DNA of 18,137 nucleotides from Candidatus Altiarchaeota archaeon (GTDB lineage: Archaea > Altiarchaeota > Altiarchaeia > IMC4 > SCGC-AAA252-I15). Position numbers and translations under genes: made by a program. The stretch covers positions 1-18,137 of the forward strand of contig JAZDMS010000002.1 in the NCBI GenBank assembly GCA_043800705.1, in the 5' to 3' direction. The notes under the pieces were generated by a model, which was given only the letters and a program-made list of their open reading frames with translations, did not search any database and was not told the origin of the DNA. Positions 1 through 16,752 of this stretch are shown piece by piece (the stretch's first letter is position 1; each line of letters begins with the position of its first letter).

Positions 1-80
1 GCCAGACGTCAAACCCGCGCCAAGAAAACGGAAAAAGAAAACTTAACCTGCACATTTAATAGAAGAATAGCTTGGGCGGA

Positions 81-108
81 ATTGAGTTTAACAACGGTTA
101 AACGCACT
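81..108. other. dif/attI-like tyrosine recombinase site (11-6-11 imperfect inverted repeat)
   Basis: ATTGAGTTTAA-CAACGG-TTAAACGCACT. The reverse complement AGTGCGTTTAA-CCGTTG-TTAAACTCAAT matches the E. coli dif arms (GGTGCGCATAA / TTATGTTAAAT) at 8/11 and 7/11. It contains GTTRRRY (GTTAAAC) on both strands and lies about 105 bp upstream of a tyrosine recombinase gene. Confidence 0.65.
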
Positions 109-150
109 TTATGCGTTTAATCATCTTTTTGGGTGGGTTAAACGCACTTT
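96..150 (+). repeat. 15-bp direct repeat GGTTAAACGCACTTT (96-110, 136-150) plus an inverted copy TGCGTTTAA (112-120); probable accessory recombinase binding sites
   Basis: Exact repeats read from the sequence, 40 bp apart. TTAAACGCA (98-106) and TGCGTTTAA (112-120) are perfect reverse complements. Confidence 0.8.
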
Positions 151-213
151 TGGCTGTTATTTTTCCGGTGCTCTATGGTCTGTTTTTTAGGGGTGGCCTT
201 CCGATTATTCTTT

Positions 214-993
214 ATGGATTCGGCTTGTGCGTTGGCGTCTTTAGATGATGAGTTGAAGCTGAGAGGGTATTCGCAGCAGACAAGGAAGACGTATGGGAGT
301 TTCGTGGGCAGATACCTCGGCTCCGGCCTAGGTGCGAGGGAATTCCTCCTATCCAACGCCGAAAAGAGCGGTTCCACGCTGAGGACGGCCTATTTCGCGT
401 TGAGGTTCTACCATAATAGGGTTGAAAAAGACGGGTTCAGCCAGGATATTCCTTTGGCGAAGAGGCCGGGTAAACTTCCCGTCGTCCTCAACAGGTCGGA
501 GGTTCAGGAATTGTTCAAGGCGACTGATAACATAAAGCATAGGCTCATCCTCATGTTGTTGTACTATGGCGGCCTCCGGTTAGGCGAGGCTAGGAATCTG
601 AGGTGGGAGGATGTCGACTTCGAGAGGGGCCTGATTCATTTGAAGTCCTGTAAGGGCGGCCGGGACAGGGTCGTTTTCCTTCATGGGCGGGTTGCGAGGA
701 CGATGTGGGAGTGCGGCCTACACAGGGTCGGCCCAGTCTTACTATCCGGTAGGGGTGTGAAGTACTGTCCTAGGACTATTGAGTTGATAGTCGTGAAGGC
801 GGCGGAGAAGGCCGGGATAGGCCGCGAAGTCTCTGCTCATTCTCTTAGGCATAGTTTCGCGACGCACCTCTTGGAGGCGGGGGCGGGCATCAGGTATATT
901 CAGAGGCTCCTGGGTCATGCTGACGTGAGGACGACGCAGGTTTATACGCATGTGGCCAATGGCGGCATTCAGCGGTTGGCCTGTCTGCTTTAG
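214..993 (+). CDS. Tyrosine recombinase, Xer/integron-integrase-like, with short N-terminal SAM-like domain
   Basis: ELKLRGYSQQTRKTY N-terminus, KLPVVL, YYGGLRLGE (Arg), KGGRDR (Lys), HSLRHSFATHLLE (HxxR), LLGH, TTQVYTHV (Tyr); all catalytic residues present. Start placed at ATG 214; the ORF is open from 175. Confidence 0.93.
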   Translation: MDSACALASLDDELKLRGYSQQTRKTYGSFVGRYLGSGLGAREFLLSNAEKSGSTLRTAYFALRFYHNRVEKDGFSQDIPLAKRPGKLPVVLNRSEVQELFKATDNIKHRLILMLLYYGGLRLGEARNLRWEDVDFERGLIHLKSCKGGRDRVVFLHGRVARTMWECGLHRVGPVLLSGRGVKYCPRTIELIVVKAAEKAGIGREVSAHSLRHSFATHLLEAGAGIRYIQRLLGHADVRTTQVYTHVANGGIQRLACLL

Positions 994-3030: not shown

Positions 3031-3732
3031 TTATTCGACGTCGCCGAACATTTGCGCATCTGGCGAGATCATCATCCCGTCGGAGGTTATCTTGAACGGG
3101 CACAGTCTCGTCGAGTGGTTGGTGTCTCGCATCTTGATTATCTCGAGGACCCTCAGTCTGTCCCTCTCCTTTGGTATGAGGTACATGTTTATCACGCCGT
3201 CGGCGACGAACTCCTCCATGTCGAATTTGGCGTCCGACCGCTTGTTCGCGGATTTTTCGAGCGCCAGCAGCGTCGTGCAGTCGAGGTCTCCGAGGTATGT
3301 GAGGAGTTCGTAAAGGTTGTTGCGGTATGCGTCGTCGCCCCTGAAGTACAGGCGCAGGAGCGTCAGGCTGTCGAGGACGACCCTTTTGACTCCGTGTTCT
3401 TCGACGTAGTTGCCTATTATGTCCTGCAGGTGGTTGAAGTCGTCGATCTTCACCCTCGTGACTGCGATGTGTGTGCTGAGGTATTTTTCCCAGTCCCATG
3501 ATCCGAATAGCGCCTTGGCGCCTTTCACGACCCTTTCGGGGCTTTGTTCGAGGGATATGAAGAGCCCTTTGTCGTTGTATTGCGCCGCTCCGCGGTAGAG
3601 GAATTCGTACAGGAGCGTAGTCTTTCCGCTTCCTGGGCCGCCGCAGATTATGACGTGCCTTCTTTTCACGAATCCGCCGCCTAACAAGTCGTCAAGTCCG
3701 GGTATGCCTGTGGGGACGCGTTCAACCATCAT
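3031..3732 (-). CDS. Single-domain KaiC/RAD55-like RecA-fold ATPase
   Basis: RVPTGIPGLDDLLGGG, Walker A GGPGSGKT, SLEQ, Walker B VVLDS, EEFVADGVI, IIKMRDTNH. GGTGA ribosome-binding site upstream. Confidence 0.93.
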   Translation of the reverse strand: MMVERVPTGIPGLDDLLGGGFVKRRHVIICGGPGSGKTTLLYEFLYRGAAQYNDKGLFISLEQSPERVVKGAKALFGSWDWEKYLSTHIAVTRVKIDDFNHLQDIIGNYVEEHGVKRVVLDSLTLLRLYFRGDDAYRNNLYELLTYLGDLDCTTLLALEKSANKRSDAKFDMEEFVADGVINMYLIPKERDRLRVLEIIKMRDTNHSTRLCPFKITSDGMMISPDAQMFGDVE

Positions 3733-6404: not shown

Positions 6405-7112
6405 ATGGAAGAGCGGATAAAGACGGGGATCAGCGGATATGATAACCTTCTTGGCGGCGGCTTCGTACCGCATAGCGTCAACCTCATATGCGGCTGCAGC
6501 GGCTCGGGGAAGACCCTTTTCACCATGTCCTACCTGTACAACGGCGTCCAGCAGTTCGGCCAGAGGGGGGTCTACATCACCCTCGAGGAGATGAAGGACA
6601 ACATCATAAGGGATTCGAAGGCTGTGGGCATGGACGTCGGTGCCGTCGATGACGAGAAGCTGATGATCTACGACATGTCGAGCCTGAGGCTGAATGCGGT
6701 CCAGACCAGCGACGAGATCGACTCGAACGAGAGCCCGCTGCGCCTTGACAACCTCCTTGAGTTCATCAGGCTAAACTACAGCGACGTAGCCCGTCTCGGC
6801 CTCGACAGCATAGTCCCGATAGCGATAGCCTACCACGACGAGCACGTCTTTAGGGCGGAGCTGTTCAGGTTCATGATGTCGCTGAAGCAGATGGGCATCA
6901 CCGTCGTGTTCACGACCGAGATCGCCCTGTCATCCAACGACACGAGCAGGTTCGGGATGGAGGACTTCCTCGCGGACTCCGTCACCCTCCTTAGGGTGAG
7001 GGAGGAGTGGGGCCGCCAGATCAAGGTCCACAAGATACGCGGCTCGAATCACATGAGGAACTTCGTCGACTACGACATCTCCTCTTCTGGCATTAAGGTA
7101 ATGTACAAGTGA
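6405..7112 (+). CDS. Single-domain KaiC/RAD55-like RecA-fold ATPase (second copy)
   Basis: RIKTGISGYDNLLGGG, Walker A GCSGSGKT, ITLEE, Walker B LGLDS, FTTE, EDFLADSV, VHKIRGSNH. Confidence 0.92.
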   Translation: MEERIKTGISGYDNLLGGGFVPHSVNLICGCSGSGKTLFTMSYLYNGVQQFGQRGVYITLEEMKDNIIRDSKAVGMDVGAVDDEKLMIYDMSSLRLNAVQTSDEIDSNESPLRLDNLLEFIRLNYSDVARLGLDSIVPIAIAYHDEHVFRAELFRFMMSLKQMGITVVFTTEIALSSNDTSRFGMEDFLADSVTLLRVREEWGRQIKVHKIRGSNHMRNFVDYDISSSGIKVMYK

Positions 7113-7441: not shown

Positions 7442-8329
7442 CTATGCCGAGTAGATGAGGGGTCTTCTGCTTTTTATCAGGCCTACAAGCCCTATCTGTA
7501 TGCTTATGCATATCGCTAAGACGAATGTGTAGCTGGTCTCGTTTATGCCGGTTCCCATGAGCGACGTCAGGACGACAAGCACCGTGGTTATGATGGTGGG
7601 GATTGCGACCGCGAACAGCATGTATACCATGCTCAGGACGTTCAGCTCCTGTATGTAGTTTTGGATTTTCATCTTCTGATCCCTTATGAGGGCCTGGATG
7701 AGGCCGGAGAGGGCCTCTTTGATGCTGGTGCCTGACTTTACGGCGTTGACGATCTGCCATATGGCGTTTCTCATGTAGTCGCTGGAGGTCCTGAGGGCGA
7801 GGGTTTCGAGGGCTTCGTCGAGGGGGGCGCCCTGGTTAGTTTCCTCGATCACCTGCCTGAGGTCCCTGGATACGAGGCCGTGGTCTGATTCCGAGACCCT
7901 TTTGATGCTGTCGAAGAGCGATAGTCCCGCGCTTATGTTAAGTAGCAGGTCCTTGAGTGCGTATATGAGGTCTTTGTCCACGAGTTCCGCCCTTTTGAGG
8001 GCGAGGATCCTGGGATACCTGAGAAGTATGAAGAAGTCGAGGATGAGGATGATTGCTGCGGGTATTGCCGCCAATTGGAATTCCTGGCCTGGGGCGAGTT
8101 CGAGGGCTGCGAGGGGGACGTATGTGAATGCGAACAGGAGCATGCCGAGGGTGATTGCTGAGAATATGGATGTTATGACGTATTCTTCGGCTGACATGTC
8201 GATGTTGGCCATGACGACGTCGCTTTTGAGCTCGGGGACGAATTCGGTCAGGTATTCGCCCTGTTTTTGGAAGGTCTGCGCCAGCCTTTTGCCCGTTCGT
8301 TGGGGGATGACCATGGCTATGACGCGCAT
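7442..8329 (-). CDS. Type II secretion system F (TadB/TadC-like) pilus platform protein
   Basis: DKDLIYALKDLLLNISAGLSLFDS, GAPLDEALETLA, WQIVNAVKSGTSIKEAL and TM segments; directly abuts the ATPase stop. Confidence 0.9.
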   Translation of the reverse strand: MRVIAMVIPQRTGKRLAQTFQKQGEYLTEFVPELKSDVVMANIDMSAEEYVITSIFSAITLGMLLFAFTYVPLAALELAPGQEFQLAAIPAAIILILDFFILLRYPRILALKRAELVDKDLIYALKDLLLNISAGLSLFDSIKRVSESDHGLVSRDLRQVIEETNQGAPLDEALETLALRTSSDYMRNAIWQIVNAVKSGTSIKEALSGLIQALIRDQKMKIQNYIQELNVLSMVYMLFAVAIPTIITTVLVVLTSLMGTGINETSYTFVLAICISIQIGLVGLIKSRRPLIYSA

Positions 8330-10072
8330 TCAGATCCCCTCCATGCCTTTTTTCTTGTTCACCGTCGCCAGGAGGTCGTCTTTGGCGGTGTAGTAGGTGT
8401 TCATGACCATGCCGATGTCGTCTATTTTGTTTATCTTGTTGCCTACGAGCCAGTCGAGTATCTGCTTCTTCTGCCTCATGTCCTCCTCTATCTCCTTGAC
8501 GCTCATCCCTGTGTAGAGGTTGAGGTCGTTGAAGACCCTGGTGCTCCTATCTATGTCTTCGAAGGAGTCCGTCTTCACCCTCCACCTGTAGAGGTATTTC
8601 AGCTCGAGGCGCCGCTCGGTCGTACCGGGCAGTATCTCCGCGACCTCGAAGGTCCTTCTGATGCCGTGGAGCCTGTCCCTGTACTGGGTCATTATCACCT
8701 GGAGGGATTCGAGCTCGGCTTCGGGTATGTGGATGGGGGGTTCGGTGACGCGGCGGCGCACCTGCTGGCAGGTATCGGCGTGCATGGTCGAGTATACGGA
8801 GTGTCCGGTGTGCATCGCCTCGAACAGGACCTCGGCCTCGCTTCGGTCCCTTATCTCGCCTACGATGACCCTGTCGGGCCTCATCCTGAGGGAGGATATG
8901 ATGAGATCTAGCATGCTGACCCCCCCCAGGTTGTCGGCGTTGGGATTCCTGGTCGTCAGCTGTATCCAGTTGAGTTTCAGGTGGGGCGGCAGCTGTATCT
9001 CCCTAGTGTCTTCGATGCTTATGACCCTCTGACCCGGCGGTATAAAGGCGCAGAGGCTGTTTAGCATGCTCGTCTTCCCGGAGGCTGTTCCGCCTGCGAC
9101 CAGGACGGAAAGCTCGTATTGGATGCACAGCCACATGAACGCCCCGATCTCGGTGGATATGGTGTGGTGTGTGAGGCCCATGAAGTCGACTATGGTCCAC
9201 GGCTCCCTCGCGAACTTCCTGATGGTTATGGTGTTGCCCTGCGACGATATCGGGAACATGGAAGCCATGACCCTGTCCCCTGTTATGAGCCTCGCGTCCA
9301 TGAGGGGGTTGAGGTTGGTGATGTCCTTGCCTATCCTCCTGCCTATCTGGGCTGCGTAGTCGAAGACGTCGTCTTCGCTCTGGATGACGATGTTCGTCTT
9401 CAGCCACCCGTATCTCCTGTGGTAGATGATGATAGGCGAACCGCCGGAGTTGATGCATATCTCCTCTATGAGGTCGTCTCCGAGCATCAGTTCCAGGTCC
9501 CCGAGGCCGTATATCCTGTGGAGGGCGAGGCCGGAGAGTATGTCGGCCTGGTCTTCGGTGACCGGCATCTCGGCGAGTATCTTCTTCCTTGCGTCTTCCT
9601 TGAACTTCTTCTTCATCTCCTCGACCTTGTGGGGGTCGGAGACCTCCTCGGTCCTCGTCGAGATCTTGCCTGCGAGATCCTTGATGACTGCGGATAGGAG
9701 CGTGGCGGTCGCCTGCCCGAGGACGGGCAGGGTTATGCAATATGTGCGCATGATGTCGCCTTTCACGTCGTGGATGCCTATCTCCGCCGGGACGCCGTTG
9801 ACCTTTATCGAGTATTTTTCGAGCTGTTTTCCGCCTATGTCGAGGCATATGCTGGCCCTGTGCAGCTTCTTCAGGGGCCGCCTCTTGACGGTCGGCTTCT
9901 TTAGGACATTCAGGGAATAGTTCACTTCAAGGATGCCGTCCAGCCTCCTGATCCAGCCGTCGGCGGCCTTCAGGTCGACGCCCGCGTCCTTGGCGGCCTG
10001 GGTCAGGTCCGTATCCTGGTCGTATTTTATGGCATCCAAGAGCGTGTCGGCCTGCGTCCTGATCTCAACCAT
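8330..10072 (-). CDS. Type IV pilus assembly ATPase (CpaF/TadA/ArlI family) with N-terminal winged-helix-like extension
   Basis: IEEICIN, TITIRKF, Walker A GGTASGKT, SIEDTRE, LRMRPDRVIVGEIR, His box AMHTGHSVYSTMHA. Start placed at ATG 10072, about 25 nt below a TATA box. Confidence 0.95.
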   Translation of the reverse strand: MVEIRTQADTLLDAIKYDQDTDLTQAAKDAGVDLKAADGWIRRLDGILEVNYSLNVLKKPTVKRRPLKKLHRASICLDIGGKQLEKYSIKVNGVPAEIGIHDVKGDIMRTYCITLPVLGQATATLLSAVIKDLAGKISTRTEEVSDPHKVEEMKKKFKEDARKKILAEMPVTEDQADILSGLALHRIYGLGDLELMLGDDLIEEICINSGGSPIIIYHRRYGWLKTNIVIQSEDDVFDYAAQIGRRIGKDITNLNPLMDARLITGDRVMASMFPISSQGNTITIRKFAREPWTIVDFMGLTHHTISTEIGAFMWLCIQYELSVLVAGGTASGKTSMLNSLCAFIPPGQRVISIEDTREIQLPPHLKLNWIQLTTRNPNADNLGGVSMLDLIISSLRMRPDRVIVGEIRDRSEAEVLFEAMHTGHSVYSTMHADTCQQVRRRVTEPPIHIPEAELESLQVIMTQYRDRLHGIRRTFEVAEILPGTTERRLELKYLYRWRVKTDSFEDIDRSTRVFNDLNLYTGMSVKEIEEDMRQKKQILDWLVGNKINKIDDIGMVMNTYYTAKDDLLATVNKKKGMEGI

Positions 10073-10095
10073 ACAAGAATACAATTAGCCGCCCG

Positions 10096-15255: not shown

Positions 15256-16752
15256 TTATTCGGTGGGCTGTATGTTGAACTGGTTGGAGGCCTTCAGCTC
15301 CGACAGGATGAGTTTCGGGTCGCTGTGGTACCTCTGGAAGAACTTAATGACCTTCGAGTTCTCCCTGATGCCTTTTGCCATCATGTATTGGAGTACCTTC
15401 TCCCTGATCAGGAGCTCCGTCGTGAGCCTCTTCTTTGTGATGCCGCACTCGCGGGCGATCTTCTCTGTGAGCAGGATGGGGTATTCGGTCCTCTTTATGA
15501 TGTCGTTGGCTATGTCGTAGGTGTATATTTCCCCGAGCTGGACCAGGTCGCCTTCTATTCCGGACACCTCAGACACCTGGGTTATCCGCCTCATCATCCC
15601 CCTCTTGCGGTCGTATATCCTGTTCATGACGACGATGAGGTTCAGAAGGGGCATCATCCTTAGGGGAACGTTCATTGGGGGTTCCATGAGGCGGATCGTG
15701 GTCTCGCGGGCGTTGTTGGCGTGCAAGGTCCCCATGCTGCCGTCGAGGCCGATGTCCATAGCGACGAAGAGCGTCTCGGCCTCGTTGCCCCTGACCTCTC
15801 CGACGATGACCCTGTCGGGCCTCATACGAAGCGAGTTCTTGAGCAGGTTGGGCATGCTTATGTGGTGTGTCATGTCGACTGTAGTCGCGGACGACGCCTC
15901 CAGTGGCACCCAGTTGTCTATGAAGTCGAAGTTCAGCTCCAGAGTGTCCTCTACAGTTATGACCCGTTCGGTCTTCGGGATGAACATGGCCATGGCGTTC
16001 ATCAGGGTCGTCTTCCCGGAGCCGGCTCCGCCGGCTATTATCAAGTCGATTGGCGAGAGGCCGAATCCTTCGACGCAGACCCAGAGGAACGCGGCAAGCT
16101 CGTATGTGGCGCTCCCCTTCTCGATGAGGTCCAGCATGTTGTACGGGACCCTCTTGAACTTCCTTATCGTGACCGCCGGCCCGTACGGGGCCGCGGGTGA
16201 GATGGCTACGTTGGCCCTTGAGCCGTCCGGCATATGGGCGTCCAGTAGGGGGTTTAACTCGTTGAGCTCCCTTCCGACGTAGTGAGCGAGCCAGTGTATG
16301 AGGTCGTTGACGGCCTCGTAGCGGTCGAAGAGGATGTTCGTGACACACATCCCGTATTTGCGGTGGACCACGAATACGGGCGTGTTTATCCCGTTGACCA
16401 TTATCTCCTCCAATAGCTCGTCCCTCATGAGGGGGCCGAGGCGGCCGTAGCCGAGGAAAAGGTCGTCTATGATTGAGGAAACGATGTATTCGAGGTTTTC
16501 CGGGTTCGTCTTGGTCTCGTCTATCTTGGACCTAATGAAGCTTCGGAGGTAGTCCTCCTTCCCGTTGCTGTTGTGGATCTCGTCGAGTTTGGTTTTGACT
16601 TCCTTATAGTTGCCGATGAGGCCCCTAGCGTCGCTTATTATCCGCTTCTCGACGTCGCTGAGTTCGGGGGATAGGTAGATGTAGTAGGGTATCTGGCCGA
16701 CTTCCCCCTCCATTATCTTCACGTTGCCGTAAGATTCCAGCAGCTCCGGCAT
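15256..16752 (-). CDS. Second type IV pilus/secretion ATPase (CpaF/TadA family)
   Basis: LEEIMVNG, LDAHMPDGSRAN, VTIRKF, Walker A GGAGSGKT, TVEDTLE, LRMRPDRVIVGEVRG, GSMGTLHAN. Confidence 0.95.
   Translation of the reverse strand: MPELLESYGNVKIMEGEVGQIPYYIYLSPELSDVEKRIISDARGLIGNYKEVKTKLDEIHNSNGKEDYLRSFIRSKIDETKTNPENLEYIVSSIIDDLFLGYGRLGPLMRDELLEEIMVNGINTPVFVVHRKYGMCVTNILFDRYEAVNDLIHWLAHYVGRELNELNPLLDAHMPDGSRANVAISPAAPYGPAVTIRKFKRVPYNMLDLIEKGSATYELAAFLWVCVEGFGLSPIDLIIAGGAGSGKTTLMNAMAMFIPKTERVITVEDTLELNFDFIDNWVPLEASSATTVDMTHHISMPNLLKNSLRMRPDRVIVGEVRGNEAETLFVAMDIGLDGSMGTLHANNARETTIRLMEPPMNVPLRMMPLLNLIVVMNRIYDRKRGMMRRITQVSEVSGIEGDLVQLGEIYTYDIANDIIKRTEYPILLTEKIARECGITKKRLTTELLIREKVLQYMMAKGIRENSKVIKFFQRYHSDPKLILSELKASNQFNIQPTE

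Follow-up and report, generated by a model that had tools for sequence, protein, structure and literature searches.

A Recombination Site beside a Tyrosine Recombinase Gene

The stretch analyzed here, 18,137 nucleotides (nt) long and called the window, is contig C17 of an archaeal genome bin (G000; 2.0 Mb in 43 contigs, 87.6% complete); the names carried by homologs agree with an assignment to Altiarchaeota. Near its left end, a recombination site with further copies of its arms (81-146) lies directly upstream of an intact tyrosine recombinase gene that is transcribed away from it on the plus strand (Table 1), as in integrons. At a probability of roughly two in three, the site is the docking site of an integron-like system of gene cassettes, and the gene encodes its recombinase, an Xer/IntI-like enzyme lacking the insertion typical of IntI.

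The two 11-nt arms of the core site are complementary at 9 of 11 positions. The motif GTTRRRY occurs on the plus strand at 97-103 and 137-143 and on the minus strand at 86-92 (GTTTAAC as read on the plus strand). A repeat search returned a direct repeat (96-119/136-159), a perfect 9-nt inverted pair (98-106/112-120), and an inverted pair across the core itself (80-92/97-109, 85%). An earlier note on this DNA had described an 11-6-11 site with GTTRRRY on both strands, followed by an inverted and a direct copy of the same arm, and all of this is borne out. Four copies of the arm TTAAACGCA, at one mismatch or fewer, fall within 83-146; shuffled sequences gave a mean of 1.85 copies per whole 18-kb window, and only 1 of 200 shuffles reached the six copies observed window-wide. 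A genome-wide scan for the arm motif, which the note had proposed, yielded less. The 9-mer arm is not enriched in the 2.0-Mb genome (9 found against ∼10 expected), and no second good site was found in its assembled part. One other inward-facing pair of arms (at most one mismatch per arm, 10-nt spacer; C4:70027-70052) was rejected as a further site, its occurrence being within chance (∼2–4 expected by a rough estimate). The 12-mer GGTTAAACGCAC occurs at only two places in the genome, both within the site in the window. A unique 28-bp site of 11-bp inverted arms and a 6-bp spacer, as in xer/dif systems, is thereby present in the assembled 87.6% of the genome. As single strands, the site region folds better than shuffled sequences (z = −3.9 and −5.3). 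No Rfam family matched the site or the folded elements described below.

The conserved stretch just downstream of the boxes (157-178) is probably the recombinase promoter. It is retained in two recombinase-less copies of the module in G000 and also at loci L007 and L159. Control of this promoter by the boxes at 112-146, and thus autoregulation of the recombinase, is plausible.

The class 1 integron site attI1 consists of a core site plus two accessory half-sites, and the four-box module may be read by analogy in the same way. Alternatively, it may represent a minimal four-box element, with box 1L (84-92) facing an outer 3′ box (137-146) and two inner boxes (97-106 and 112-120) enclosing a 5-nt loop. 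Boxes 4 and 1L are complementary at 8 of 9 positions, as read by eye, and the concerted change of all arms in orphan modules fits the minimal four-box reading. The arm copies that the earlier note had called accessory half-sites are real as repeats, but inner and outer 3′ boxes, belonging to an attC-like site with four boxes, may be the better description.

Table 1. Features of the Window and of Related Loci
Feature	Position	Strand	Sequence or description	Basis
Core recombination site, 11-6-11 (attI-like/dif-like)	81-108		ATTGAGTTTAA CAACGG TTAAACGCACT; left arm 81-91 (ATTGAGTTTAA), spacer 92-97, right arm 98-108 (TTAAACGCACT)	Repeat search and reading of the arms
Putative crossover region	89-93		TAAC (89-92), then A; homology with other contexts ends here	Identity of a 267-nt contig up to 93; junctions in relatives
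Box 1L (R″-like)	84-92	+	GAGTTTAAC; part of the neighboring cassette	Box comparison
Box 2 (right arm, L″-like)	97-106	+	GTTAAACGCA	Repeats and arm search
Box 3 (L′-like)	112-120	−	TGCGTTTAA; perfect inverted copy of 98-106 after a 5-nt spacer	Repeats
Box 4 (R′-like)	137-146	+	GTTAAACGCA; direct copy of box 2	Repeats
Conserved TTATTTTTCCGGTGCTCT stretch	157-178	+	TTATTTTTCC..TGCTCT; probable promoter of the recombinase gene (TATA box and start region)	Conservation
Tyrosine recombinase gene	214-993	+	259 amino acids (aa); R, K, HxxR, H, and Y present, no IntI insertion	Open reading frame, Pfam, alignment
Probable Xer-proximal end of the first gene cassette	1-92	−	Truncated by the contig end	Identity of the 267-nt contig
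Open reading frame of 291 aa	990-1865	−	No Pfam match; convergent with the recombinase gene, 4-nt overlap at the stop codon	
KaiC-like and pilus/archaellum-type genes	3031-3732, 6405-7112, 7442-10084, 15256-16752		Two KaiC-like ATPase genes and two pilus/archaellum-type gene sets	
Cassette array in G000	C35:70523-76448 (L155 4530-10449)		Four elements in one orientation	
Recombinase-less module in G000	C35:76346-76448		Arms TTACCCGCA; before a DUF6485 gene	
Third module copy in G000	C21, ∼740-860 (L003)		Arms TTACCCGCA	
Second array in G000	C37:1-2611 (L156)		Two elements	
Insertion sequence	L025 2413-4291 (G039:C12)		DDE transposase; inverted repeats of 25 nt, 96% complementary; abuts the 5′ half-site of an element at one end, upstream of a recombinase homolog	
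Repeat, probably an insertion sequence	L128 550-1490 (G041:C25)		∼940 nt	
Decayed second site in a DHVE2-group genome	G043:C55, ∼15600-15730 (L130)		DHVE2-type site, promoter, and first ∼45 nt of a recombinase gene; adjoins an McrBC pair	

An Enzyme That Is Neither a Canonical XerA nor an IntI

The recombinase frame is open without interruption from 175 to 993, and its start at ATG 214 is set by relatives and by the gene caller. The product matches PF00589 at 8.7e-38 and ends in ...QVYTHVANGG. The earlier note was right that the gene is intact and points away from the site, that the protein ends on a YTHV motif, and that the segment specific to IntI is missing. On alignment to Vibrio cholerae IntIA (2a3v), query residues 170-203 (33 aa) lie opposite residues 170-248 (78 aa), and the IntI-specific insertion, the region of the I2 helix, is therefore absent. 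The segment from the lysine to the histidine is 62 aa long, compared with 106 in a true IntI. The distance from box I to box II (arginine to histidine) is 87 aa (87–88 across the clade to which the protein belongs); the corresponding values are 90 for XerA, 95 for XerD, and 131 for a true IntI, L098.

The designation of the enzyme as Xer-type in the same note held in part. In full scans, the window protein and its homologs L029, L025, and L159 matched XerA best among the NCBIfam models, followed by integron integrase. The score is nevertheless short of every cut-off: 172.5 bits against 220 for the archaeal XerA equivalog (NF040815), 168.2 against 265 for the integron integrase (TIGR02249, matched in two stretches), and 54.6 against 267 for XerS (NF003462). 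The best relatives of solved structure are Pyrococcus abyssi XerA, aligned in one stretch, and V. cholerae IntIA, aligned in two. A tree with IntI, XerA, and XerC/D, which the note had also proposed, was built from 28 sequences, a thin sampling that includes one IntI-like row on a very long branch. In this tree, 11 of the 13 array-linked sequences form a single clade (100/100), with L036 and L026 branching separately nearby, and the clade stands apart from XerA plus XerC/D (98/99), on the side toward IntI. Neither by score nor by tree is the enzyme a canonical XerA.

These results bear on a rival account of the locus, in which the gene is a chromosome-dimer resolvase, 81-108 its dif site, the extra arms operators for autoregulation, and the left flank a plastic terminus that accumulates unrelated elements. 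A xerA/dif module is described for some archaea (PMC5357621), the 11-6-11 layout is dif-like and the site is unique in the assembled genome, and the best solved relative is an XerA. The gene is also the only tyrosine recombinase found in G000, and no XerA above cut-off was found in 18 searched genomes of its own family; in the G000 lineage the recombinase may thus be the sole Xer-like enzyme as well. The enzyme, however, scores well below the XerA cut-off of 220 and does not group with XerA on the tree, and a separate canonical XerA is encoded elsewhere in three relatives, G041 (308.5 bits), G043 (314.6), and G026 (245.6), so that the array-linked paralog need not be the dimer resolvase. Moreover, the folded elements found upstream of homologous recombinases copy the layout of the site and are joined to it at exact junctions, which goes beyond passive accumulation. 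As a full explanation, dimer resolution is unlikely. It does not exclude the cassette system, and one site could serve both, with the docking site possibly doubling as the chromosome dimer-resolution site.

Folded Elements Resembling attC

At seven recombinase-bearing loci among the relatives (L157, L026, L025, L017, L036, L159, and L166), structured elements lie upstream of the recombinase gene. A covariance model was built from six elements, and 29 copies were found in the loci compared. At E ≤0.01, 12 of 12 matches at these seven loci were upstream and on the recombinase strand, as was a 13th at E 0.042. The element is 90–125 nt long. In its predicted fold, a small internal loop separates an outer stem (...TAAC / GTTA...) from an inner stem, which carries a branched tip. 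The common design reads tttcgGATAAC, 3–4 nt, GGATTAAGCG, branched tip, CGCTTAATCC, 3 nt, GTTATCCG. The order of the boxes is that of attC, with an outer stem carrying AAC/GTT followed by an internal loop and an inner stem, and the R″/R′ and L″/L′ pairs and the folding of one strand are all present in the predicted fold. The 7-nt consensus RYYYAAC/GTTRRRY is kept in part, for example, as GGATAAC / GTTATCC. The first half of the element (..TAAC, 3–4 nt, TTAA.CG) resembles the layout of the core site (GAGTTTAAC, 4–5 nt, GTTAAACGC). An inside-out reading of the hairpins (GTT...AAC) was abandoned once the borders were set at TAAC and the boxes read across the junction.

In the alignment of the 29 elements, which was fitted to the model and leans toward the model's own structure, 92.8% of cells are paired, and in 19 of 23 pairs both sides have changed. 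None of 500 shuffles reached this pairing, and controls with the pairing slid along the alignment attained at most 46.7%. The folding z-scores are about −5.6. One pair of alignment columns (25/82 in alignment A4) is a G-T wobble in 25 of 29 elements on the recombinase-sense strand. The opposite strand would have an A-C mismatch there, a hint that folding involves one strand in particular. The three-way junction at the tip was also considered as a hammerhead-type ribozyme, a tRNA-like unit, or an IS110 bridge RNA; inspection by eye gave no support, and Rfam returned no match.

Thus hairpins bounded by ...AAC and GTT..., which the earlier note had predicted, occur in direct orientation upstream of homologs at the seven related loci, and G000 itself holds two arrays of them. 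Three elements were found at L036, labeled Pacearchaeota. The closest relative, L159 (71% identity), carries three or four elements and small minus-strand open reading frames upstream of a site with TTACCCGCA arms. At L026 (G026:C1), an element and the site occur together in the one closed related genome. The same layout of the site recurs with altered arms upstream of other homologs, for example, TTAAGCGAG / TCGCTTAA / AAAAGCGAGG at L008 and GATTATGCG / CGCATAATC in the DHVE2 group. When a 14-nt site pattern was searched with three mismatches in five DHVE2 genomes, counts equaled those of the reversed-pattern control, and only the exact match beside the recombinase gene of each genome is meaningful.

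Cassette Junctions Fall at TAAC

Position 1 of the window is the first base of C17, and the DNA to its left is therefore unreadable here. On the minus strand, an ATG at 55-53 opens a frame that runs to position 1 (18 codons, MCRLSFLFPFSWRGFDVW). The left flank, said to be AT-rich in the earlier note, has a GC content of 0.37 in 21-80 but 0.70 in 1-20, against a window mean of 0.56, so that the description applies to the former part only. The window holds no tRNA gene, and a tRNA-targeting island was ruled out on that ground.

A 267-nt Logan contig from a public sequencing run of another habitat (X2) matches window positions 1-93 with no differences. Beyond 93, the window enters its core site, whereas the contig reads TCGCGATTAAGAGAAGTT..., which is the inner box of an element (compare L036). 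Only two sequencing runs contained small shares of the sequence; apart from the X2 contig, the pieces are short conserved parts of the recombinase gene and uninformative.

Junctions of the same kind were seen at other loci. A stretch of 716–721 nt shared by L159 (3008-3723) and G000 contig C37 (2604-1886) at 86.7% identity has TAAC at both ends and different neighbors in the two genomes. It comprises one element and two small open reading frames that, by eye, resemble a RelE-type toxin-antitoxin pair. In five species of the DHVE2 group, the recombinase is ∼94% identical and synteny of the right flank extends for 6 kb or more, but from TAAC onward the left flanks are unrelated; in four of these species, the start of a minus-strand gene, provided with a ribosome-binding site, lies 20–45 nt from the junction (by eye). 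To the left of the site in G041 stand a TIR-STAND gene (848 aa, 2.7 kb) and then an McrBC pair, all on the minus strand, with a structured element of ∼90 nt after the TIR-STAND gene and another after the McrBC pair. The TIR-STAND gene and its element are thus wedged between the site and the McrBC cassette. In G043, the McrBC cassette directly abuts a decayed second copy of the site (Table 1), and homology between the two genomes ends at TTTCGCCTAAC (TAAC).

The outer boxes carry a further trace of exchange. In 10 of 11 cases, the outer 3′ box of an element pairs better with the recombinase-proximal half-site of its own cassette than with the half-site now adjacent (equal in one, worse in none). 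In G041, the own-end matches extend to 11/11 and 9/11 positions. This is precisely what would be expected from circular cassettes that recombined immediately after TAAC.

Assemblies are regularly broken by something upstream of the recombinase. A contig end lies <1.1 kb upstream in 16 of 21 homologs with ∼50% identity or more and the gene start present, and two further contigs begin inside the gene. A ∼940-nt repeat in G041 (Table 1) matches dozens of places, many of them contig ends, in the DHVE2-group genomes G042–G045.

Arrays and Orphan Modules in the Same Genome

A profile made from the elements of G000 itself found six copies in this genome. Four are on C35, all oriented alike, and the other two lie close to the start of C37. 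The C35 array has minus-strand genes (a response regulator and unknowns) between its elements and ends in a recombinase-less module of site plus promoter. On C37, two elements bracket the RelE-type-like toxin-antitoxin cassette (by eye) and are followed by a lone half-site made up of TAAC and an inner box. The contig then runs into an IS630-like transposase leaving the contig, and its overlaps of 139–141 nt with the starts of C1, C11, and C28 show how such regions fragment. The third copy of the module lies on C21, ∼750 nt from the contig start; a ribonucleotide reductase gene follows ∼350 nt downstream, and no folded element was found next to the module. The orphan modules on C35 and C21 may be relics of former recombinase loci, and they are the strongest point in favor of a regulatory role.

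Three module copies of ∼130 bp that share spacing and a promoter-like stretch, and stand before different genes, might instead be the common promoter of a small regulon (recombinase, DUF6485 protein, and ribonucleotide reductase), the four arms being operators for a transcription factor. Yet the resemblance among the copies extends over their entire length (mean column identity 69%), as expected of duplicated DNA, and is not confined to the boxes. In addition, the C35 copy forms the end of a cassette array, and the break in homology between genomes falls within the module, at TAAC. A regulon of this kind is very improbable.

In another possible account, the hairpins would be small non-autonomous transposable elements, or the ends of insertion sequences, that target themselves to TAAC or dif-like DNA, with the recombinase a bystander. 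IS110-family transposases do occur in the C35 array, an insertion sequence with 25-nt inverted repeats abuts an element at L025, and some published families of insertion sequences target dif sites (PMC10132070). Against this, the six elements found in G000 are all in two arrays, every element has the same orientation relative to the recombinase gene, most cassettes are without a transposase, and the pairing of elements with their own cassette ends agrees with recombination of circular cassettes at a single site. Self-targeting elements seem quite unlikely as the explanation.

Other Genes in the Window

Two type IV pilus or archaellum-type gene sets, with T2SSE ATPases and a T2SSF platform protein, occupy much of the window together with the KaiC-like genes. 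The open reading frame that converges on the recombinase gene is listed with them in Table 1.

Discussion

The earlier note had left two readings side by side, a cassette-capturing system run by a recombinase other than IntI or a self-contained xer-dif module. The first is favored by the hairpins at seven related loci, the two arrays in G000, the 267-nt contig, and the missing insertion, although the array at the window locus itself is not visible. In the proposed mechanism, a cassette would consist of one or a few genes and a 90–125-nt element, and recombination just after TAAC would insert or remove circular cassettes. Cassettes would then stack to the left of the site with their genes mostly pointing away from the recombinase gene. 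The window protein is the candidate catalyst of this recombination, and the element may act as folded single-stranded DNA.

Several observations weigh against this interpretation. No cassette array is seen at the window locus, position 1 being a contig end, and no contig end of G000 overlaps the start of the window; short matches to 1-97 are uninformative. The only direct link for the left flank is the single 267-nt contig, which comes from another sample. No elements were found in the long upstream flanks of L163 (2.4 kb, 54% identity), L013, and L014. The recombinase lacks the I2 helix, which has been linked to the shift of IntI to recombination of single-stranded DNA (PMC7790495, PMC4792948, as far as these sources describe it). 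Two IS110-family transposases stand inside the C35 array, so that other mobility enzymes are at hand, the two recombinase-less modules also fit a shared regulatory module, and the pairing in the element alignment has the lean noted above.

A broader proposal is put forward only tentatively. The system could be a widespread means of cassette capture in archaea (labels Altiarchaeota, DHVE2 group, and Pacearchaeota; possibly also small-genome bacteria), run by a recombinase lineage between Xer and IntI that lacks I2 and would recombine attC-like hairpins in folded form at a dif-like site adjacent to the gene encoding it. Perhaps it is a living relative of the integron ancestor, and it could account for the lack of a nearby IntI at most archaeal attC clusters. 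No description of an Xer-type or insertion-less enzyme running such arrays in archaea was found in the literature searched. A natural cassette system with attC-like hairpins but without the I2 helix would make the origin of integrons directly testable. If the proposal is true, it supplies a candidate enzyme for many archaeal cassette clusters without a nearby integrase and explains the regular position of the recombinase gene at contig ends in metagenome assemblies. The cassettes of the relatives include defense genes (TIR-STAND and McrBC, by Pfam) and toxin-antitoxin-like pairs (by eye), and the system may therefore shape the exchange of defense genes among uncultured archaea.

Comparison with Known Systems

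With XerA/dif and XerS/difSL, the locus shares a single recombinase and an 11-6-11 site; for XerS and some archaea, the site is described as lying beside the gene (PMC5357621). In Thermococcales, as far as described in PMC2958812, dif is not beside xerA. The present system differs from both in scores that fall below the cut-offs, in the separate canonical XerA of relatives, and in the cassettes attached to the site.

In CTX-type elements, a folded single-stranded attP mimics the Xer site and is inserted there by the Xer-type enzyme. The pdif modules of Acinetobacter plasmids, in which genes bracketed by Xer sites behave as modules, are a second case (described in PMC7399989 and PMC10132070). 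Here, by contrast, many small cassettes of the same family stack in one orientation beside the enzyme's own gene, and in at least three relatives the housekeeping Xer is a different protein.

Cassette arrays have been reported in archaeal genomes from metagenomes, mostly without a neighboring integrase (Ghaly et al., 2022; PMC9668308). They were found with IntegronFinder, and the six integrases described in that source carry the IntI-specific domain. The arrays are a shared trait, whereas the enzyme here lacks that domain.

Chromosomal integrons differ from the present system in several respects. The enzyme here has no IntI insertion and scores 168.2 against the cut-off of 265, the boxes fit RYYYAAC/GTTRRRY only in part, the tip of the element is a three-way junction, and the docking site has four boxes, like a minimal element. 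Among the shared traits, the recombinase gene is oriented away from a site where cassettes stack, as seen here at the related loci, and the cassette genes mostly point away as well. Outer and inner boxes with conserved AAC/GTT triplets make up the imperfect palindrome that closes a cassette, the crossover would fall at the AAC|GTT edge, and the halves of the outer boxes are exchanged between neighbors. In both, the cargo includes toxin-antitoxin-like (by eye) and Pfam-matched defense cassettes.

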